Assembly: GCA_963814375.1 (NCBI GenBank)
Contig: CAWFCQ010000006.1
Location: forward strand, 64,001 to 128,000
Source of the DNA: an uncultured Chloroflexia bacterium
GTDB lineage: Bacteria; Chloroflexota; Limnocylindria; QHBO01
Direction of reading: 5' to 3'
DNA: 64,000 nucleotides
In this document: positions 4,241 through 36,879 of the stretch, one piece after another
How positions within the stretch are numbered: position 1 is the first letter of the stretch
Layout of the letters: each line of letters starts with the position of its first letter
The notes under the pieces: generated by a model
The model's database searches: none
The model's input: the letters and a program-made list of their open reading frames with translations, nothing else
What the model was told of the DNA's origin: nothing
Made by a program: the position numbers and the translations under genes

Positions 4241-5459
4241 CGGCCTCTCTCCAGGATGGGTCGAGCGAACCGGTCTCGGCATCGATCCCCGCCGCGGCCG
4301 CCGTCAACCGATGCTCGCCGCGCGCCGCGCCGGTCGCGACGAAGCGGACCGCGTAGCCGGAGCGCGCCAGCCTCCGCATCGGCTCGAGGTAGGGGCTCGG
4401 ATCTCGCGCGCTGATGACGAGGACGGTGCCGCCCGGGGCGAGACGGCGTGGCACGACCGCGAGGAGCTGCTCGAAGGGCAGGGAGAGGATCGGCTGAATG
4501 CGGGCGAGGAGGTCCTCGATCCGCCCGAGCTGTCCCGGCGCGCTCGACGGCGGCAGGTACGCCCAACGCCGGCCGCCGGCCAGCTGCGCGCCGATGAGGA
4601 GGCCGGCCGCCGCACCATCGCGCAGGAAGCGCCGCGAGAGCGAGGCAGCAGAGACACACAGTCCCTCGAGCTCGTCGTCATCGAACAGCATCAGCCAGTG
4701 CGGCCCGGGCACGGTCTGGAGATCGAGGGCGATCAGCACCTGTCGCTCGTTGACGGGCTCGAACCGACGGCTGACCGGCCGGCCGATGCGGGCGGTGGCG
4801 CGCCAGTGGATGCGGCGAGGCGGGTCGCCCGGCTGGTAGGCGCGCACCCCGGCGAAGCGCGATGGATCGCTGAACAGGCTGGTGGCGGTCCGCGTCGCGC
4901 CCAGCGGCGAGCGAGCAGGTTCGGTCGGGCGCACGGGCACGGTCCGCGGTCGGACGAGCAGCTCGCCGGGCAGCTCCCTCTCTTCGGCGTTCGTTCCTCG
5001 CTCGAAAAGGTCGCTGACGGTGAGACGCACCGGTCCGAACGTGAAGACCCCTCGGCGTCGGGCGTCGATCGCCAGGTGACGGACGACGCGCTCGTACCAG
5101 AGCAGGGACCACGCGTTCTGGAGCGTCGCGCGGCCAGGCCGGTCGCTCGGGCCGAGCTTTCGGCCGACGATGCGCAGTGAATCGGTGACGTGATCGTCCG
5201 CGACGAGCAGCGGGACCGGGAGCAGCTTCTGGTTCCAGACCTCGAGCTCGAGCGGGACCTCGTCGCCCCACACCGCGCGATCAGTGCCGATGCGACGCTC
5301 GAACACCACGCGCTCGAGCCCGTAGCGTGACCACAGCGTGGTGAGCCATCGGCTGAGGACGGTCAGCCCTCCGACCAGCAGCAGGCCCGGCGCGCCAACC
5401 GCCGCACCGACGAGGATCATCGCCAGGCCGATCAGCGTCCAGCCGCCCATGCTGGGCAT
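4218..5459 (-). CDS. DUF58 family protein
   Basis: GVRAYQPGDPPRRIHWRATAR motif; RRGVFTFGP. Confidence 0.92.
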   Translation of the reverse strand: MPSMGGWTLIGLAMILVGAAVGAPGLLLVGGLTVLSRWLTTLWSRYGLERVVFERRIGTDRAVWGDEVPLELEVWNQKLLPVPLLVADDHVTDSLRIVGRKLGPSDRPGRATLQNAWSLLWYERVVRHLAIDARRRGVFTFGPVRLTVSDLFERGTNAEERELPGELLVRPRTVPVRPTEPARSPLGATRTATSLFSDPSRFAGVRAYQPGDPPRRIHWRATARIGRPVSRRFEPVNERQVLIALDLQTVPGPHWLMLFDDDELEGLCVSAASLSRRFLRDGAAAGLLIGAQLAGGRRWAYLPPSSAPGQLGRIEDLLARIQPILSLPFEQLLAVVPRRLAPGGTVLVISARDPSPYLEPMRRLARSGYAVRFVATGAARGEHRLTAAAAGIDAETGSLDPSWREADALALAR

Positions 5460-28783: not shown

Positions 28784-29689
28784 CTATGGTAGCCGCCAGC
28801 CGCCCGCCTGGCCGACCTTTGTGCCCAGGCTTCGGCCGAGGACCGTGCTGACGTGCCGCGCCGCCTCGAGCAGCGCGTCGAGGTCGACGCCGTGGCTGAA
28901 CCCCTCGCGGTCGAGGAGGTACACGAGGTCCTCCGTGGCGAGGTTGCCCGCAGCGCCGGGCGCGTAGGGGCAGCCCCCGGTGCCGCCGGCGGACGCATCG
29001 AAGCAGCGGACCCCGAGATCGAGGGCCGTGGCCACGTTGGCGAGCGCGGTGCCGCGCGTGTCGTGGAAGTGCATCGCCAGCCGCTCCGCGCCGATGCCCG
29101 CTTCGAGCAGCGCGCCGACCACGCGGCGCACGTCCGACGGTGCGGCGACGCCGATCGTATCCCCGATGCTGAGCTCGTCCACGCCCAGGTCCAGCAGCCG
29201 ATGCGCGACGTCGACCACGGCGGCCGCGTCGACCTCTCCCTGGTACGGGCACCCGAACGCCGTGCTGACGTAGCCGCGGCTCCACCAGCCGCGCCGGCGA
29301 GCGCCGGAGACGACCGGCCGGAACGCGTCGATCGACTCGTCGATCGACATGTTGATGTTGTGGCGCGTGAACTCCTCCGAGGCCGCGGTGAAGACGCACA
29401 CGGCGTCGACGCCGGCCTGCTCGGCGCGCTGCAGGCCGCGCTCGTTCGGTACCAGCGCCGGGTAGCGGACACCGGGGCGTCGTTCGAGGCGAGCCATCAG
29501 GTCATCCGCGTCGGCGAGCTGCGGGATGGCTCGCGGCGAGACGAAGCTGGTCGTCTCGATCTCCCGCAGGCCGGCAATCGCGAGCAGCTCGATGAAGCGC
29601 AGCTTCGCATCGGTCGGGATGGGCGCAGCCTCGTTCTGGAGCCCGTCCCGTGGCCCGACCTCGTAGATCCGGACGTCGCGCTCAGCCAT
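28784..29689 (-). CDS. liuE: Hydroxymethylglutaryl-CoA lyase
   Basis: EVGPRDGLQNE, HFHDTRG, GGCPYAPGAAGN. Confidence 0.93.
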   Translation of the reverse strand: MAERDVRIYEVGPRDGLQNEAAPIPTDAKLRFIELLAIAGLREIETTSFVSPRAIPQLADADDLMARLERRPGVRYPALVPNERGLQRAEQAGVDAVCVFTAASEEFTRHNINMSIDESIDAFRPVVSGARRRGWWSRGYVSTAFGCPYQGEVDAAAVVDVAHRLLDLGVDELSIGDTIGVAAPSDVRRVVGALLEAGIGAERLAMHFHDTRGTALANVATALDLGVRCFDASAGGTGGCPYAPGAAGNLATEDLVYLLDREGFSHGVDLDALLEAARHVSTVLGRSLGTKVGQAGGWRLP

Positions 29690-31715
29690 CGGCGCCATCG
29701 TAGGCCGCGACCTCGCCGAGCGGGTCGCCACGCTGGACCTGCTGCCCGACTCCCACCGCCACCCGCCGCAGGATGCCGGCATGCGGGGCGACGACCGCGT
29801 GCTCCATCTTCATCGCCTCGATGACCACGAGCGGCTCGTGCGCGGCCACCAGCGCACCCTCGACGGCCCGGATGGCGATCACGCGCCCCGGCATTGGCGC
29901 CACCAGGAGCGCGGTTGCATCCGCGCCGGCGGCCGCCGCGTGGCGAACCGCCTCGTCGACCGTCGGAGCGCTCGCGAGGGCGAATTCGAGGGACTGGCCG
30001 TCGACGTCGACGTGCGCCACGCCGCCGGCGGCGATTGCGGCCGGCTCGCCGGCCGCATCGTCCGGTTCGGTGTCGACCCGCACCCGGCGCTCCTCGTCCC
30101 CGTGCCGCACGCGGATGATCGGCGCGGAGTTCAGGCGCCACCCGTCGCTCCACGGCCCGGCCGCGTCGGGCCTCAGGGCCCGGCCGGCAGCTTCCCAGTG
30201 CGCGTCTGACACGGTCGGCGGACCAGGCAGCGGGATGGACGCCAACGTATCGGTGCGCATCTGGCCGTCGCGCATAACGGGCTGGTCGAGCAGCCAGCGC
30301 AGGAAACGCAGGTTGGTACGGACTCCGAGCACCGTCGTCTCGGCCAGCGCGCGTAGGAGTCGCTCGACGGCCTCCGCGCGGCTCCCGCCGTGAGCGATGA
30401 GCTTGGCCAGCATCGGGTCATACCGATCGCTGACGGTGATCCCGGCGCGGGCCGCGGTGTCGATGCGGACGCCGTCGGGCCAGGCAACCAGCGCGAGCAC
30501 TCCGCTGGCGGGCAGGAAGCCGGATTCGGGGTCCTCGGCGTAGAGGCGAGCCTCGATCGCATGGCCGTGCATGGGTGGCGCCGCTCGCAGGCCGAGCTCC
30601 TCGAGCGTCGCGCCCCCGGCCACGAGGATCTGGTCTGCGACGAGGTCGCGGGCGGTGACCGCTTCCGTGACCGGGTGCTCCACCTGGAGCCGTGTGTTCA
30701 TCTCCAGGAAGTACGCCTCGCCGTCGTCGGAGAGCAGCATCTCGACCGTCCCGGCCCCGCGGTAGCCGACCGAGCCGGCGACAGTGAGCGCCATCTCGCC
30801 CATCCGCCCACGGAGCTCGGGCGTCATGCCAGGGGCGGGCGCCTCCTCGACGATCTTCTGGTTGCGACGCTGGCTGCTGCAGTCGCGCTCGCCGAGATGG
30901 ACCCCCTGGCCGTCGGCGTCGAACAGGACCTGGATCTCGACGTGCCGCGGCCCCGGGAGGAAGCGCTCGAGGATCAGGCGGTCATCGCCGAACGACCGTG
31001 CCGCCTCCCGGCGTGCCCCGGCCAGCGCATCGGTGAGGTCGTCGGCGTGATGGACGACGCGCATTCCCTTGCCGCCCCCGCCCGCCGACGGCTTGACCAG
31101 CAACGGAAAGCCGATCTCTCCTGCCGCCTCGGCCAGTGCCGCGTCGCCCTGGTCATCGCCGTCGTAGCCCGGCAGCACCGACACGCCGAGCTCGGCGGCG
31201 CGCCGTCGCGCGGCGGCCTTGTCGCCCATCGCCGCGATCGCCTCGGGCGGAGGACCGATCCAGGCCAGCCCGGCGGCAATGGCCGCGCGCGCGAACCCCG
31301 GGTTCTCGGCCAGGAACCCGTACCCCGGGTGAATCGCCTCGACCCCGGCGGCGCGGGCGACGGCCAGGATCTCGCCGCCGTCGAGATAGCTGGAGATCTC
31401 GTGGGCTTCATCGGCGCCATCCGGCGCCGCCTCGTCGGGGGCGTGAACGGCGACGACCCGAAGCCCCATGCGGCGCGCGGTCCGCACGATGCGAACGGCG
31501 ATCTCGCCGCGGTTGGCGACGAGAACGGATCGGATCGCCGCCTGTGGCGGGCGGGCGATGGTGGAGACGCCTCCGAGCGACGAACGCGACACGCGCACGC
31601 GGCTGCCGACCCGTTCCGCGGGCAGACGCCCGTCGGCGATCCAGCGCTGGACCGTCCTGACCGTCACGCCGAGCTCGCTCGCGATCTCTCGTGGCGTGAG
31701 TTGGTCGTCGGTCAT
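29682..31715 (-). CDS. liuD: Methylcrotonyl-CoA carboxylase alpha subunit (biotin carboxylase + BCCP) with N-terminal excisionase-like HTH
   Basis: ANRGEIA, HPGYGFLAEN, EMNTRLQVEHP, EAMKME; N-terminal LTPREIASELGVTVRTVQRWIADGRLPA. Confidence 0.9.
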   Translation of the reverse strand: MTDDQLTPREIASELGVTVRTVQRWIADGRLPAERVGSRVRVSRSSLGGVSTIARPPQAAIRSVLVANRGEIAVRIVRTARRMGLRVVAVHAPDEAAPDGADEAHEISSYLDGGEILAVARAAGVEAIHPGYGFLAENPGFARAAIAAGLAWIGPPPEAIAAMGDKAAARRRAAELGVSVLPGYDGDDQGDAALAEAAGEIGFPLLVKPSAGGGGKGMRVVHHADDLTDALAGARREAARSFGDDRLILERFLPGPRHVEIQVLFDADGQGVHLGERDCSSQRRNQKIVEEAPAPGMTPELRGRMGEMALTVAGSVGYRGAGTVEMLLSDDGEAYFLEMNTRLQVEHPVTEAVTARDLVADQILVAGGATLEELGLRAAPPMHGHAIEARLYAEDPESGFLPASGVLALVAWPDGVRIDTAARAGITVSDRYDPMLAKLIAHGGSRAEAVERLLRALAETTVLGVRTNLRFLRWLLDQPVMRDGQMRTDTLASIPLPGPPTVSDAHWEAAGRALRPDAAGPWSDGWRLNSAPIIRVRHGDEERRVRVDTEPDDAAGEPAAIAAGGVAHVDVDGQSLEFALASAPTVDEAVRHAAAAGADATALLVAPMPGRVIAIRAVEGALVAAHEPLVVIEAMKMEHAVVAPHAGILRRVAVGVGQQVQRGDPLGEVAAYDGADG

Positions 31716-31740
31716 GTCGCGATTGTCGCAGGGTGCGGCG

Positions 31741-32529
31741 TCAGTCGCCCTCCCACGAGGGATTGCGCTTCGCGAGGAAGGCGCTGAGGCCCTCTTGCCC
31801 CTCGGCCGACGTGCGTTGCTGAGCGATGTGCCGGACCGTGTGGCGGCGAGCCTCGTCCGCCGGCAGCGCGCGCAGCTCCCGCACGAGGGACTTCGCCGCG
31901 CGGGCGGCGGTGGGGCCGGCCAGCTGAAGCTCGGCCACGATCTCGGCGGCCCTGGCGTCGAGCGCCGCCTCGTCGGTCACGATCTCGTGCACCAGGCCGA
32001 TGCGAAGGGCTCGATCGGCGTCGAACGGAGCACCCGACGCGAACAGTGCGCGGGCTTGCGACTCGCCGATCTTGGGCAGCACGAAGGTGCTGATCACCGC
32101 CGGGATGATGCCAAGGCGGGTCTCGGGGAACCCGAAGGTCGTGCCGGCGGTCGCAATCACGATGTCCGCGACCGCGCAGAGGCCCATGCCGCCGCCGAGC
32201 GCCGCTCCCTGCACGCGGGCCACGACCGGGACGGGGCAGGTGTCGATGGCGGTGAGCATGGCCTGCATCGCCGCCGCGTCTCGCTCGTTCTCGTCGATGG
32301 ACAGCCCGATCGAGCCCCGCATCCACTCGACATCCGCCCCGGCGCAGAACACGGCGCCGGACCCGCCCAGGACGACCGCGCGCAACGCGCCGGCCGGCTC
32401 GCGGCCGAACGCCTCGAACGTCACGCGCAGCTCTCCGATCAGCTCCGCGTTGAAGGCGTTGCGGACCTCGGGGCGGTCGAGCGTTACCCGCGCGAGCGAG
32501 CCCTCACGTGAGACCTCGAGCACGCTCAT
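31741..32529 (-). CDS. liuC: Enoyl-CoA hydratase (methylglutaconyl-CoA hydratase-like)
   Basis: RPEVRNAFN, FCAGAD, ALGGGMGL, PETRLGIIP; liu context. Confidence 0.85.
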   Translation of the reverse strand: MSVLEVSREGSLARVTLDRPEVRNAFNAELIGELRVTFEAFGREPAGALRAVVLGGSGAVFCAGADVEWMRGSIGLSIDENERDAAAMQAMLTAIDTCPVPVVARVQGAALGGGMGLCAVADIVIATAGTTFGFPETRLGIIPAVISTFVLPKIGESQARALFASGAPFDADRALRIGLVHEIVTDEAALDARAAEIVAELQLAGPTAARAAKSLVRELRALPADEARRHTVRHIAQQRTSAEGQEGLSAFLAKRNPSWEGD

Positions 32530-33335
32530 CGGCCGCGTCGTCGATGGAATGGCTCGGCGACGGCGCGCACCTGCGTCAGCAGTGGTTCCTCCAGCCACAC
32601 GACGTCGGTCCCATCGGGCACGTCGACCGTGGCCGACGCGCCAACGTCACCGACCAGGCCGAGCATCAGCCTCGGCGTGCCGTCACTCGCATCGGTCTCG
32701 ACCAGGTATGCCGCCTCGACGGCCGTGTCGCGCAGCTCGTCGGAGATGGTCGTCTCGAGGGGTCGGGTGTCGGTCGAGGCGAGGCGGACCCTGATCGAGA
32801 TGCGGGAGGTCGGCTCGAAGAGCGGCTCGCCGCTGCCGGGGATGTTGCCCGCGGCGAGCGCGGCAAGCTCGCCGAGGTCGAATCGATACGGAACCGGGCC
32901 CGCCGGATCCATGATCGCCGGCATGCCGGCGGCCGCAAGGTTGGCAACGGCGATGCGCGCCGGGAGCGGGAGATTGCCGGTTTGCGCCGGTGCCCAGGCG
33001 GCGAGCGCCGCGAACGAGCCGAAGACCACGCTCACGGTCTCGCCACCGCTCTCGCGGGCCAGCATGACGCTGATCTCGACCTGCTCGTCGTCGGTGACGG
33101 CCGATGCCAGCGCCGCCTTCGCCTCATCGCCGTGCTCGGGCGGGACGGGAAGCAGAAGCGTCCCGCTCATCAGGGTCCGGTAGAAGGCGACGAGCGGCCC
33201 GCGATCGCCGCGCGTCTCCGCCTCGCGAGCGGCGAGCATGGCGTCGAACAGGTTCGCGGCGCTCTCCTCCAGCGATCCTGAGGGCGTGGAGCGATCGTGT
33301 GAGCCCGGCGCCGGGCGGTCATTGCCAGGATCCAT
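32526..33335 (-). CDS. SseB-like family protein
   Basis: TLLLPV, VFGSFAALAAW, DPAGP, then SseB_C-like VEAAYL..LMLGL. Confidence 0.65.
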   Translation of the reverse strand: MDPGNDRPAPGSHDRSTPSGSLEESAANLFDAMLAAREAETRGDRGPLVAFYRTLMSGTLLLPVPPEHGDEAKAALASAVTDDEQVEISVMLARESGGETVSVVFGSFAALAAWAPAQTGNLPLPARIAVANLAAAGMPAIMDPAGPVPYRFDLGELAALAAGNIPGSGEPLFEPTSRISIRVRLASTDTRPLETTISDELRDTAVEAAYLVETDASDGTPRLMLGLVGDVGASATVDVPDGTDVVWLEEPLLTQVRAVAEPFHRRRGR

Positions 33336-33375
33336 CGGTCGGGTGAGCCTAGCGGATGCTGCTAGCATCGGCTCC

Positions 33376-34164
33376 ATGATCCGTGGCATCGATCACCTCG
33401 TCATCGCCAGCCCTGATCCTGACGTGGCCGCGACCGAGCTCGAGTCGAACCTGGGCCTCGCGGCCGTCGGCGGCGGACGCCACCCCGGGCGCGGGAGCTT
33501 CAACCGGATCGTCTGGCTGGCCGACGGCAGCTACCTCGAGCTGGTCGGCGTCGACGATCCGGAGCTGGCGCGCCAGGGCGCTGTGGGCGCCGCGGTGGTC
33601 CATGCGCTCGAGGCTCACGGCGGCGGGCTTGCGACGTACGCCCTCCGCGACGATGACCTCGAGGCCACCGCGACCGCGCTCGGGGCGATCGGGACGTTCG
33701 GTCCGGTGGCCCACGGCAGCCGCACGCGGCCCGATGGCGAGCTCGTCGAGTGGTGGACGGCGCTGCCGGTCTCGGAGCTCGCTCCTGACGCCACGCCATT
33801 CCTCATCCAGCACGCCTACACCGGCGCCGAGTGGAGCCACGACGCGCTCGCCGAGCGTGCAACTTACCGCCACCCGATCGGCGCCCCCGTCGCCCTCGCC
33901 CGCCTGGACATCGCAACGGCCGAACCTCCGGCCACGGCAGCGACGATCCACGACGCGCTGGGGATGGACTTCTGGGCCGTCGCCGACCTGGCGGTGGCGG
34001 AGACGGGGCCGCACGTCATCCGCCTCGTCCCGCGCCGCGAGATGCCGGTGCCCGCGGTCGTCACGCTCGCGGCCGACGTGGACGCTCCCCGCACGGCGGA
34101 GCTGCTCGGCCTCCGATTCGACGTGGAGCGCGCCGAGCTCCCCGTCCGCGTCGCAGATCGCTGA
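33376..34164 (+). CDS. VOC (glyoxalase-like 3) family protein
   Basis: IDHLVI, GGRHPG, N.IVWL.DGSYLEL, RTRPDG, PFLIQH. Confidence 0.88.
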   Translation: MIRGIDHLVIASPDPDVAATELESNLGLAAVGGGRHPGRGSFNRIVWLADGSYLELVGVDDPELARQGAVGAAVVHALEAHGGGLATYALRDDDLEATATALGAIGTFGPVAHGSRTRPDGELVEWWTALPVSELAPDATPFLIQHAYTGAEWSHDALAERATYRHPIGAPVALARLDIATAEPPATAATIHDALGMDFWAVADLAVAETGPHVIRLVPRREMPVPAVVTLAADVDAPRTAELLGLRFDVERAELPVRVADR

Positions 34165-34177
34165 CGGATCCCTCCGG

Positions 34178-34498
34178 CTATCGGTCGGGCGGGGGCACCT
34201 CGGAGTCGCCCTGGCCCGCGGGCACGTCGTGGCTGTCCGCCTGGATCGGCTCACTCGCGGGGGCCGGCTCCGCGGCAGCCGGATCGTTCGCCGGCGCCGC
34301 GGCCGACGTCCCCACCGCGTCGCTCGCGCCGCGATTCATGCCGACCAGGACCATCGCGGCGCCGATGATTGCGACCAAGATCCCGGCGAACGGCTGGAAG
34401 TCGTCGACGAGCTCCATCAGGCTGAACTGAAAGCCGACCAGCGGCAGCAGCAGCGAGCCGGCACCGATGATGATGAGAAAGACGCCCCATCCGACCAT
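34178..34498 (-). CDS. Small membrane protein
   Basis: Two TM helices plus Ala/Pro tail; GGAGG RBS. Confidence 0.7.
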   Translation of the reverse strand: MVGWGVFLIIIGAGSLLLPLVGFQFSLMELVDDFQPFAGILVAIIGAAMVLVGMNRGASDAVGTSAAAPANDPAAAEPAPASEPIQADSHDVPAGQGDSEVPPPDR

Positions 34499-34575: not shown

Positions 34576-36174
34576 TCACATGCGGAAGAGGCTGAAGCCC
34601 GGCTCGGGGATCGGTGCGTTGAGAGCGGCGCTGATGCCCATGGCCAGGATGCGCCGCGTGTCGACCGGGTCGATGACCCCATCGTCCCACAGCCGAGCCG
34701 TCGAGTGGTACGGGGACCCCTCGCGCTCGTACTTGGCGAGGATCGGCGCTTCGAAGGCGTCACGATCCGCATCGGTCGCGAACTCGCCGCGCACCGTGGA
34801 CAGGACGCGGGCGGCCTGGGCTCCGCCCATCACGCTGATCCGGGCGTTCGGCCACATCCATAGCTGGCGAGGCCCGTACGCCCGGCCCGCCATGCCGTAG
34901 TTCCCGGCCCCGAAGCTGCCGCCGATGATGACCGTGAACTTCGGCACGTTGGTCGTGCTGACCGCGGTGACGAGCTTCGCTCCATCGCGGGCAATGCCGC
35001 CAGCCTCGTACTCGCGTCCGACCATGAATCCGGTGATGTTCTGGAGGAAGACGAGCGGGATCCGCCGTTGCGAGGCGAGCTCCACGAAGTGCGCCCCCTT
35101 CAGCGCCGACTGGCTGAAGAGAATCCCGTTGTTGGCGATGATCCCGACCGGGTAGCCGTGGAGACGGGCGAAGCCCGTCACCAGCGTCTCGCCATAGCGC
35201 GCCTTGAACTCGTGGAAGTCGGAGCCATCGACGAGTCGTGCGATCACCTCGCGGACGTCGTAGGACTGGCGCGCATCGGCCGGGATGACTCCATACAGGC
35301 TCTCGGCTGATGCCGAGGGCTCGCGAGGCTCGGCCACGTCCCATGGCGGATCAGGCTTGCGCCATGCCAGGTTGCGCACGATCTGCCGGCCGAGGGCCAG
35401 AGCGTGCTCATCGTCCAGGGCATAGTGGTCGGCCACGCCCGAGGTGGTGGTATGGACCTCCGCGCCACCCAGCTCCTCCGCGCTCACCTCCTCGCCGGTT
35501 GCTGCCTTCACCAACGGCGGGCCGCCGAGGAAGATCGTGCCGGTGCCCTTCACGATGACCGTCTCGTCGCTCATGGCCGGCACGTACGCGCCACCGGCGG
35601 TGCACGAGCCCATGACCAGCGCGACCTGCGGAATGCGCCGCGCCGATAGCTGAGCCTGGTTGTAGAAGATCCGCCCGAAGTGGTCGCGGTCCGGGAAGAC
35701 CTCGTCCTGAAGCGGCAGGAACGCGCCCCCGCTGTCGACCAGGTAGAGGCACGGGAGCCGATTCTCGAGCGCGATCTCCTGCGCGCGGAGATGCTTGCGC
35801 ACGGTGATCGGGTAGTACGTGCCGCCCTTGACCGTCGCGTCGTTGGCAACGATCACGCACTCGACGCCCTCGACGTGGCCGATGCCGGTCACGATGCCTG
35901 CACCCGGCGCCTCATCGTCGTAGAGGCCGTTGGCGGCGAGAGCCGAGAGCTCGAGAAAGGCGCTGCCCGGATCGATCAGCAGGTCGATCCGTTCGCGGAC
36001 GGGGAGCTTCCCCCGTTCTCGATGCCGCGCGATCGAGCGGTCATCGCCTCCCGCGCCCCGGTCAGCCAGAGCCGCGGTTCGCCGGCGGAGGTCGGCGACC
36101 AGCGCGCGCATGGCGTCGGCGTTGGTGCCCGTGTCCGCGGAGTCGGGCTGGAGCGCAGTCTGGATGACGGCCAT
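34576..36174 (-). CDS. liuB: Methylcrotonyl-CoA carboxylase beta subunit (carboxyltransferase)
   Basis: [44 protein letters not shown]. Confidence 0.93.
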
Positions 36175-36196: not shown

Positions 36197-36772
36197 TCAG
36201 GCGAGGGTGACGAGCGACACGATCTGGGTGATGTGGGCGGCGTTGAGGATCGCGACGCTGACGACATGCTCGAATGGCGGGTCGCCCTCGTGCAGCAGGT
36301 AGGCATCGGTCAGCGGCAGGAACCGCTGGTTGCGCAGCAGGTGAGGACCGACCTCGACGCCGGGTGCCAGGTGGATGTTTCCCGTGATCGTGAATGGACC
36401 GGCGACGATCGCGGCGCGCTTCAGGCGTCGGTGCAGGCGCAGCTGGCGGCTGGCGCGCCACTCGGGCGGCATCGCCATCACCACCCGTGCCGTCGCGAGG
36501 GTCTCCCACTCGCCGTTCGTACCGCCGGGCTCTCCCCCGTCGCGCGGGGGATCCGTTCGGTCGAGCGGACCCGGGCTGGGCCTCCAGAGGCGGAGCTCAT
36601 CCTGGGAGAGGAGCAGGTCGGTGACGCGTTGGCCATTTGGCGCGATCCAGCCCACGATCCGCGAGTCGGCCGTGTAGATCTCGATCGGGGCCAGGTCGAG
36701 ACTCAACGCCATGGCCGCGGTCCCCTGGATGTCAGCCGGACCGGGACCCCTCCGCCAGTTCCAGAACGTCAC
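36197..36772 (-). CDS. Hypothetical protein, tandem DUF6812-like beta domains
   Basis: IEIYT..SRIVG..RVTDLL and AGPFTITGNIHL..FLPLTDA; AGGAGG before GTG 36772. Confidence 0.6.
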   Translation of the reverse strand: MTFWNWRRGPGPADIQGTAAMALSLDLAPIEIYTADSRIVGWIAPNGQRVTDLLLSQDELRLWRPSPGPLDRTDPPRDGGEPGGTNGEWETLATARVVMAMPPEWRASRQLRLHRRLKRAAIVAGPFTITGNIHLAPGVEVGPHLLRNQRFLPLTDAYLLHEGDPPFEHVVSVAILNAAHITQIVSLVTLA

Positions 36773-36879
36773 GTTGCCTCCTGCTCGGAACGGCCGCCCG
36801 AGCACTCGGGCGACCTCCACCGCAACCGTATGCTTCCGCGCGGGCTCGACCAACGGGCCGATAGTCCTACCCTGCTCCC

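Follow-up and report, generated by a model that had tools for sequence, protein, structure and literature searches.

Several metabolic enzymes, such as BirA, PutA, NadR and archaeal RbkR, carry a DNA-binding domain in the same polypeptide. Genes of leucine catabolism are controlled by a separate protein, LiuR, a regulator of the MerR class of helix-turn-helix (HTH) proteins that contains a dimerization helix and binds palindromes, and the subunits of the Escherichia coli acetyl-CoA carboxylase feed back on their own expression with no fused HTH. BirA, PutA, NadR and RbkR are, to our knowledge, not biotin-dependent carboxylases, and they have DNA-binding domains from classes other than the one described here. 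Two further systems bear on how a small HTH can read repeated DNA. BldC binds a 9-bp unit, AATTXXXX(C), head to tail as direct repeats (PMC5859096). RacA consists of an N-terminal winged HTH, a disordered linker and an oligomerizing C-terminal part, whose presence increases the affinity from 9.2 uM to 58 nM, and recognizes a GC-rich site (PMC4914108). Here, we analyze a stretch of 64,000 nucleotides (nt) from contig CAWFCQ010000006.1 of an uncultured Chloroflexota bacterium (hereinafter, the window), in which the gene for the predicted alpha subunit of a 3-methylcrotonyl-CoA carboxylase (MCC) starts with an HTH domain (HTH-mccA, encoding HTH-MccA) and is immediately preceded by a 15-nt element, site 1, that contains two GCGAC units 9 bp apart. 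From comparison of these sequences, we lean, without great confidence, toward a bifunctional HTH-MccA, that is, an active MCC alpha subunit that would also repress its own promoter in the manner of BldC or RacA.

Under this proposal, mccA would be driven by its own leaderless promoter-like element (TG-n-GACAAT, 6 nt, ATG), and two HTHs would bind both GCGAC units head to tail, as in BldC, blocking RNA polymerase; these units coincide in part with the -10 box, with the discriminator and with the inferred start of transcription. Because the HTH lacks a dimerization helix, the multivalency would be supplied by the oligomeric enzyme, with the carboxylase lending avidity to the HTHs as the C-terminal domain of RacA does. 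In one family of the hosts (f1), an inverted second site about 140 bp downstream (site 2) might add cooperative binding, looping or a roadblock. The output would be feedback on the amount of the alpha subunit and of the coupled 3-hydroxy-3-methylglutaryl-CoA (HMG-CoA) lyase, and candidate input signals are assembly with the beta subunit, substrate, ATP and biotinylation. We infer all three key steps, namely, DNA binding, the transcription start and repression by HTH-MccA, from sequence.

A carboxylase alpha subunit with an N-terminal DNA-binding fold

The fused gene and its parts are as follows (aa, amino acids; pLDDT, predicted local distance difference test score).

29682..31715, minus strand: HTH-mccA coding sequence, 677 aa, an open reading frame (ORF) encoding an N-terminal HTH_17, biotin carboxylase, BT region and biotinyl carrier
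31575..31700, minus strand: HTH_17/MerR-like winged HTH, aa 6-47 (Pfam and TIGR01764, above cut-offs)
31536..31574, minus strand: linker, aa 48-60, variable in length and sequence (poorly conserved columns 48-60, low pLDDT)
30240..31535, minus strand: biotin carboxylase part, aa 61-492, with the GGGGKG loop (Pfam, invariant motifs, pLDDT >90)
29715..29903, minus strand: biotinyl carrier domain, aa 605-667, containing AMKM (Pfam Biotin_lipoyl)
29808-29810, minus strand: K636, the lysine of AMKM

The original prediction, made from this DNA alone, placed an HTH in the first ~50 aa, in frame with a complete carboxylase alpha subunit and with no Met in between, and the 677-aa open ORF and its domain matches bear this out. 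HTH_17 (PF12728) covers aa 6-47 with an E-value of 2.2e-10 (41.1 bits against a Pfam cut-off of 27) and is followed by Biotin_carb_N (61-160), CPSase_L_D2 (165-373), Biotin_carb_C (388-492) and Biotin_lipoyl (605-667); the NCBIfam model of the excisionase-family DNA-binding domain, TIGR01764, scores 46.8 bits against a cut-off of 28.8. When the in-frame codons of mccA are read, no ATG is found from the HTH to the ANRGEIA motif, and the only GTG codons in that interval, those of V17, V40 and V42, all lie within the HTH. The best solved relative, the MCC alpha subunit of Pseudomonas aeruginosa (3u9s_A, E = 1.4e-145), aligns with residues 56-669, so that, apart from 55 added N-terminal residues, this is an ordinary MCC alpha.

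In an alignment of 69 sequences, the biotin carboxylase motifs GGGGKG and E338-x-N340-x-R342, to which a catalytic role is ascribed, are invariant, and A634, M635, K636 and M637 are at least 90% conserved, as is EAMKMEH. The features of the class are present, namely, the ATP-grasp domains, the AMKM carrier domain, an MCC-type beta partner and a liu-like context. By its sequence, HTH-MccA is an MCC alpha subunit with predicted 3-methylcrotonyl-CoA carboxylation activity, and the enzyme and the DNA-binding domain reside within one polypeptide, as in trigger enzymes.

The HTH is translated and subject to purifying selection, because its residues are fixed while the codons vary: among 49 f1 genomes, R20 alone is written with six codons. 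It is also the most conserved part of the protein, with 23 of the 41 positions from 7 to 47 invariant in the 69-sequence alignment, a far higher share than in the rest. The domain had been described as MerR-like or BldC-like, and both profile and fold comparisons agree. PF12728 matches 79 of 79 fused HTH segments, and a profile built from these 79 retrieves the phage excisionase Xis gp37 (4.4e-9), RacA (1.3e-7) and BldC (1.2e-4). An AlphaFold2 (AF2) model of the HTH alone (pLDDT 88.3) comprises helices 3-10, 14-23 and 39-46 and strands 28-31 and 34-37. Foldseek searches with this model yield template modelling (TM) scores of 0.80-0.85 to Xis gp37, RacA-DNA and BldC-DNA (0.84, 0.82 and 0.80-0.82, respectively) at weak E-values, which is expected for a 48-residue domain.

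The recognition helix is TVRTVQRW, in which R20, Q23, R24 and W25 are invariant in 79 of 79 fused sequences. RacA contacts bases via K15 and R19 (PMC4914108); by our reading of the profile alignment, these residues would correspond to R20 and R24 of HTH-MccA. The models PF00376 and PF13411 remain below their cut-offs in HTH-MccA and match the HTH part only. There is no long coiled-coil dimerization helix or effector pocket; rather, a ~13-residue, low-confidence linker leads into the biotin carboxylase. In the full-length AF2 model, the enzyme part is confident and residues 37-57 have pLDDT below 50, which suggests that aa 37-57 may form a flexible tether. No other HTH_17 protein of the genome that contains the window (G000) was found to possess this recognition helix. 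The domain has a DNA-binding fold, and sequence-specific binding is predicted.

It is conceivable that the HTH no longer binds nucleic acid and has become a protein-protein or assembly module of the carboxylase, the DNA element at the gene start being unrelated. The poorly modelled wing in the full-length prediction would fit such a role, but the positions that contact bases in RacA are occupied by invariant arginines, the HTH is the part of the protein that changes least, and its tight co-occurrence with the element (see below) would have to be a coincidence. We give this explanation hardly any credence.

As a separate observation, a 60-aa HTH query run against a library clustered at 50% identity retrieves 1218 proteins at E<=1e-3, the top matches being fragments and multi-HTH_17 proteins, and many of the closest relatives carry 5-7 tandem HTH_17 repeats. 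This suggests that HTH_17 arrays that read repeated DNA may form a wider theme.

Distribution of the fusion

The fusion is confined to two families (f1 and f3) of uncultured soil and freshwater bacteria. Altogether, 130 of the 301 genomes of the class, G000 included, contain it, with 95 of 103 in f1 and 34 of 91 in f3, and it was not found in f2 (0/92), f4 (0/12) or f5 (0/2). A survey of 401 genomes of the phylum contains 21 fused genes, all in f1 (16/16) or f3 (4/23), and none in about 80 other Chloroflexota families sampled. These class and phylum tallies include G006, G144, G312, G109, G266, G178 and G118, which are flagged as unpublished and are excluded from the locus-level analyses. Within the same genus, the match spans the HTH-carboxylase junction in 24 of 24 genomes. 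In a search in which only residues 1-62 were scored, over proteins of 372-1185 aa, 421 clusters were recovered at E<=1e-3, and 120 of the 120 among those listed carry PF12728 and carboxylase domains; the named sources are Candidatus Limnocylindria or Chloroflexota. A further scan for related loci on genome contigs was dominated by LVANRGEI, a pattern shared by all biotin carboxylases, and its 80 loci were left out of the analysis. Thus the domain-architecture search that had been proposed as a check recovers the fusion across two families, and the concern that the fusion is an indel artefact or unique to this assembly is dispelled by its presence in 130 genomes. In some assemblies (G003, G076, loci L106 and L108), mccA is frameshifted or split, which fits the remark of the original prediction on indels and leaves the conclusion unaffected.

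Shorter relatives of the HTH yield 72 matches, mostly truncated copies of the fusion. About 16 of the 72 lack a carboxylase domain, mainly short or contig-end fragments; two of 71-72 aa on long contigs (P0136 and P0137) look free-standing and may be frameshift products comparable to the split gene in G076. Two partial proteins among these matches bear a Methylomirabilota label.

A repeat element abuts the start of the fused gene

31716..31730, minus strand: site 1, TGCGACAATCGCGAC, flush with the ATG, the proposed promoter plus operator

In site 1, two GCGAC units 9 bp apart are combined with an extended -10 motif, TG-c-GACAAT, whose hexamer lies at 31722-31727, and with a discriminator of 6 nt; direct repeats, as guessed in the original prediction, do exist. 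Among 49 f1 genomes from many genera, the 15-mer is exact in 40, has one mismatch in 5 and two in 3, and is absent from one. Whatever lies farther upstream, the start codon directly follows it in 48 of 48 genomes (ATG in 41, GTG in 7), and the 11 nt preceding it (-2 to -12) are random in f1. In G000, the 15-mer occurs nowhere else, whether 0 or 1 mismatch is allowed. Exactly one exact copy is present in 49 of 61 f1 genomes and two copies in none, and the exact copy adjoins mccA wherever the position of mccA is known (coordinates compared by eye); with at most one mismatch, these 61 genomes contain 72 matches, compared with 8 for the reversed control. In the fused genomes of f3, variants of the form (T/C)GCGAC-N4-GCG(A/C/T)C lie a few bases before the start in 33 of 33.

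No Shine-Dalgarno sequence precedes the mccA ATG. In G000, a TANNNT hexamer precedes the start of an ORF with 120 or more codons 198 times with a gap of 6 and 137 times with a gap of 7 (335 in total), against a background of ~30 per spacing. These peaks indicate that leaderless genes are common in G000, and site 1 has the geometry of a predicted leaderless promoter that matches this signature of the genome.

Site 1 could then be a promoter only, or the site of a separate factor that reads GCGAC repeats, with the HTH tethering the enzyme to the nucleoid or binding elsewhere. Its full extended -10 geometry is in line with this explanation, which we regard as unlikely, and so is the role of RacA, a close HTH relative that is described as architectural and not as a regulator (PMC4914108). 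However, the discriminator CGCGAC and the non-consensus bases of site 1 are invariant, far beyond what is seen in the neighbouring DUF6812 promoter of the same loci, and the repeats persist when the promoter register changes. An extended -10 motif and a -35 box are a usual trade-off, and both solutions occur here: in 11 f3 loci, a TTGYS box lies 17 nt ahead of GACAAT and the TG is missing, and in the f1 loci and 13 f3 loci of the 'TA-TGCGAC' type the TG is present without a -35 box. Five f3 loci (plus L147) are arranged as TTGACR-N5-element-ATT, so that the -10 box (GACATT) is made by the second GCGAC unit instead of the first. In f3, the two repeats are thus kept while their register with the putative promoter shifts, and the constant feature of the element is two GCGAC units 9 bp apart. 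Given the invariant discriminator and the survival of the repeat pair through the register shift, site 1 goes beyond the needs of a promoter. Furthermore, the other HTH_17 proteins of G000 have different recognition helices, which speaks against a separate factor.

A palindromic reading of the element (GCGAcaaTCGC) was rejected: in the f3 variants AAACGC and GAACGC, the direct repeat survives but the palindrome does not. We also discarded a regulon derived from a loose genome scan for GCGAC-N4-GCGAC, whose 93 matches show codon periodicity (spacers of 1, 4, 7 and 10 are enriched) and are uninformative.

Several individual loci show variations on the element. In L157 (G174), it is tandemly duplicated upstream of mccA, with CGCGACAATCGCG(G/C)C present twice at a distance of 26 nt. 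The four extra 1-mismatch sites that we looked at include one in G076 (the gyrA array described below) and one in G051. In locus L209 (G051 C12), a 1-mismatch copy (TGCGACAATCGCGGC) lies one base before the ATG of an ORF that begins with MVGNAPSIHVNRDQ; this copy is perhaps another leaderless promoter of this kind. In locus L131 (genome G059), the hydratase stop codon TAG is directly followed by the mccA ATG, and a 1-mismatch copy is located elsewhere (C2:31111), with no obvious gene start after it.

An inverted copy inside mccA

31576..31590, plus strand: site 2, AGCGACGAACGCGAC, inverted relative to site 1, within codons 42-47 (V S R S S L)

The antisense strand at 31576-31590 reads GCGACGAACGCGAC, that is, the same repeat pair as in site 1, inverted, at +125 to +139 from the mccA ATG and ~140 bp downstream of site 1. 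Across 49 f1 genomes, codons 42-46 are nearly uniform (GTG in 43/44, TCG in 44/45, CGT in 35/45, TCG in 44/44 and TCG in 44/46), whereas the codons of other invariant R, V, G and T residues in f1 mccA vary freely; hence site 2 is under synonymous constraint in f1.

As inverted copies, sites 1 and 2 could pair at 12 of 14 positions, and one might envisage control at the RNA level, with pairing in read-through transcripts hiding the start or with the HTH binding its own mRNA. Both an RNA-library contig across the hydratase-mccA junction and the missing Shine-Dalgarno sequence would suit this explanation. Yet most of the 33 f3 genomes with the fusion have site 1 alone, and G059 has site 2 alone; because each site occurs without the other, obligate pairing is unsupported. 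Transcription starting at the ATG would leave site 1 outside the mRNA, and the solved relatives of the fold bind DNA. No covariation is visible between the two sites because both are almost invariant. We judge RNA-level control to be very improbable.

Co-occurrence of element and fusion, and the likely target

In 20 f2 genomes, where mccA is unfused, GCGAC-N4-GCGAC is absent within 300 nt upstream of mccA (0/21 loci), and the sequence closest to the 15-mer there differs from it at 3-7 positions; in many cases, mccA overlaps the stop codon of the hydratase gene, the classic form of translational coupling. Site 1 and the fused HTH co-occur in the loci compared, and the absence of the element from unfused orthologues counts against a promoter or a separate factor as the whole explanation.

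The genes around HTH-mccA, all on the minus strand, are arranged in the order DUF6812, mccB, an ORF of unknown family, SseB-like, enoyl-CoA hydratase, HTH-mccA, HMG-CoA lyase and nucleoside hydrolase.

28784..29689, minus strand: HMG-CoA lyase gene (NF004283, 397.7 bits against a cut-off of 246)
31741..32598, minus strand: enoyl-CoA hydratase, methylglutaconyl-CoA hydratase-like (Pfam ECH_1, E = 3.4e-50)
32526-33389, minus strand: SseB-like protein (Pfam SseB, E = 2.3e-10)
33349-34254, minus strand: ORF with no family match, between mccB and the SseB-like gene
34576..36174, minus strand: mccB, MCC-type carboxyltransferase (beta) subunit (3u9r_B, E = 7.3e-235, full length)
36197..36772, minus strand: DUF6812 gene, first of the upstream operon (GTG start preceded by AGGAGG)
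36825..36869, minus strand: upstream operon promoter, a conserved block, TAGGACTATCGGCCCGTTGGTC, with -35 TTGGTC, a 17-nt variable spacer and -10 TACGGT

The liu-like surroundings noticed in the original prediction hold up under Pfam, NCBIfam and structure-library matches to an MCC-type beta subunit, an enoyl-CoA hydratase and an HMG-CoA lyase. The beta subunit matches the MCC subunit 3u9r_B at 7.3e-235, compared with 1.9e-135 for geranyl-CoA carboxylase and about 1e-78 for propionyl-CoA carboxylase. The hydratase stop lies 25 nt upstream of the mccA ATG. Since the HMG-CoA lyase ATG overlaps the mccA stop (ATGGCTGA), the lyase is co-expressed with mccA; this synteny is kept in 19 of 20 related loci.

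The DUF6812-mccB promoter serves as a within-locus control for divergence: among 12 loci anchored on its conserved block, the spacer and the discriminator vary freely, and no GCGAC repeats were found. Because the repeats are present only at the fused gene and absent from this promoter, which precedes the genes from DUF6812 and mccB to the hydratase, autoregulation is favoured over control of the liu cluster. The evidence points to mccA and the translationally coupled HMG-CoA lyase as the putative regulated unit, rather than the whole cluster. Thus the suggestion that the carboxylase regulates leucine catabolism directly survives in part: it may hold for mccA itself and the lyase, which have a candidate operator, and is unsupported for the upstream operon, whose promoter lacks the repeats.

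Some further features of the neighbourhood are of note in their own right. The strongly conserved block of the DUF6812-mccB promoter (36825-36869 of the window, minus strand), TAGGACTWTCGRCCCGTTGGT, includes the -35 box and is a possible target of a further regulator. Between this promoter and the DUF6812 GTG lie a GC-rich 5' leader and a perfect AGGAGG. The SseB-like gene and the ORF with no family match (32526-34254) are both syntenic across the genus, within the liu-like cluster. Four genomes of the genus have an extra gene of ~1 kb between the hydratase and mccA (L096 at 4243-5433, L103, L105 and L109); that of L096 belongs to the S66 LD-carboxypeptidase family, and the 15-nt element still abuts the mccA start.

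GCGAC arrays at gyrA in one family

GCGAC repeats are also found at gyrA, in a comparison of loci L213-L242 and, for the array inside the gene, additionally of L271-L290. In 23 of 29 f1 loci, the region of up to 170 nt upstream of gyrA contains two to four (G/A)CGAC units with a 9-bp period, and 13 of these 23 arrays satisfy the strict GCGAC definition; such upstream arrays are absent from all 20 f3, f4 and f5 loci (0/20), including those of nine fused f3 genomes (0/9). In G000, three GCGAC units with a 9-bp period lie between the stop codon of a thioesterase-like gene and the gyrA ATG (C3:198978-199000, minus strand, outside the window). The upstream arrays stay with gyrA where the upstream gene differs (L241 and L242).

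A second array is located inside gyrA (G000 C3:198017-198039, minus strand, outside the window), where it encodes the peptide DIRDESD at about codons 303-310. In 25 of 29 f1 loci, this peptide is written GCGACATTCGCGACGAAAGCGAC, with ATT, GAA and AGC, which we take to be uncommon codons in a genome with 70% G+C; the same peptide uses CTG, GAG and TCS in 17 f3, f4 and f5 loci. This points to synonymous constraint in f1 gyrA that would create three 9-bp repeats. A search for three units in 53 f1 genomes recovers mainly the gyrA sites and the mccA start, with GC-rich coding repeats at the control level.

The arrays upstream of gyrA (23/29) and inside it (25/29) show repeat-reading beyond mccA and, in this respect, speak for a separate GCGAC-reading factor. 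The fused f3 genomes contain the mccA element without any of these gyrA arrays (0/9), which speaks against it. Alternatively, HTH-MccA might be a multivalent scaffold that also reads the gyrA arrays of f1 and would couple leucine or acyl-CoA catabolism, or the assembly state of a biotin enzyme, to gyrase expression or local chromosome structure; this is a distinctly improbable extension.

Observations that weigh against autoregulation

Six observations weigh against the proposed autoregulation by HTH-MccA. First, the full-length AF2 model assigns low confidence to the wing. Second, G059, an f1 genome, keeps the HTH and site 2 but lacks site 1. Third, site 2 is missing from the majority of the 33 fused genomes of f3, with a look-alike at +138 to +157 in 3 of the 33, so that a two-site scheme is not general. 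Fourth, contig X1 of an RNA library (31579-31774, with a depth of 3.9) runs across the hydratase-mccA junction and may reflect read-through transcripts or DNA carry-over; the RNA runs were used as small shares, in the form of contigs only. Fifth, in five genomes from unfused f3 genera, this query retrieved no MccA orthologue but only biotin-carboxylase-domain matches (to about aa 450), so that the contrast behind the co-occurrence rests on few independent events (f1 and part of f3 versus f2). Sixth, with GCGAC arrays also at gyrA, a separate repeat-binding factor could serve both loci.

Comparison with known systems

In the literature searched (supplementary files not covered), no paper on an HTH-carboxylase fusion was found; HTH-MccA is a candidate trigger enzyme with a fused DNA-binding domain, a kind that is known, in a carboxylase version that is new in that literature. 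If the proposal holds, HTH-MccA would be the first carboxylase of the biotin-dependent class to contain a DNA-binding domain of its own, and it would provide a clean natural case of an oligomeric enzyme that lends multivalency to a monomeric HTH of the BldC type. With one protein, one 15-bp site and one leaderless promoter, the proposed circuit is minimal and is open to tests that are entirely in vitro or use a heterologous host, an advantage in a lineage that is uncultured. It would also supply a defined candidate DNA motif for an HTH_17 subfamily and illustrate how one subunit of a two-gene enzyme becomes uncoupled from its operon and subject to feedback; the gyrA arrays, which are specific to f1, hint that its role is wider.

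With BirA, PutA, NadR and RbkR, HTH-MccA shares the architecture of a metabolic enzyme that carries a DNA-binding domain and has a proposed target in its own pathway; it differs from these trigger enzymes in that the proposed operator is its own leaderless promoter, with no co-repressor known. Compared with LiuR and classical MerR proteins, it has no coiled-coil dimerization helix, and its HTH is fused to a carboxylase. The P. aeruginosa MCC (PDB 3u9r, 3u9s and 3u9t) is the best solved match for both subunits, but its alpha subunit starts at aligned residue 56 and has no counterpart of the first 55 residues.

The best match of the HTH itself is Xis gp37 of mycobacteriophage Pukovnik (PDB 4j2n; TM 0.84, root-mean-square deviation 1.1, 40% identity, E = 4.4e-9), which, however, is a phage recombination directionality factor, and there is no integrase or att context at mccA. 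RacA of Bacillus subtilis (PDB 5i41 and 5i44) is the nearest or second-nearest solved relative by sequence (E = 4.7e-5 and 1.3e-7), and the TVQRW recognition helix is common to both proteins; unlike HTH-MccA, it is not an enzyme but a chromosome anchor that recognizes a palindrome, TGACGCCGGCGTCA, and binds DivIVA through a C-terminal coiled coil. BldC of Streptomyces (PDB 6ama and 6amk) resembles the domain of HTH-MccA in being a MerR-like winged HTH with neither coiled-coil nor effector domain (TM 0.80-0.82 at 31% identity, profile E-value 1.2e-4), and the repeat period is 9 bp in both. BldC, however, exists as a separate ~68-aa protein, reads the AT-rich unit AATTXXXXC and has a developmental regulon, whereas in HTH-MccA the domain is fused to an enzyme, the putative unit is the GC-rich GCGAC, and the evident candidate target is its own gene.

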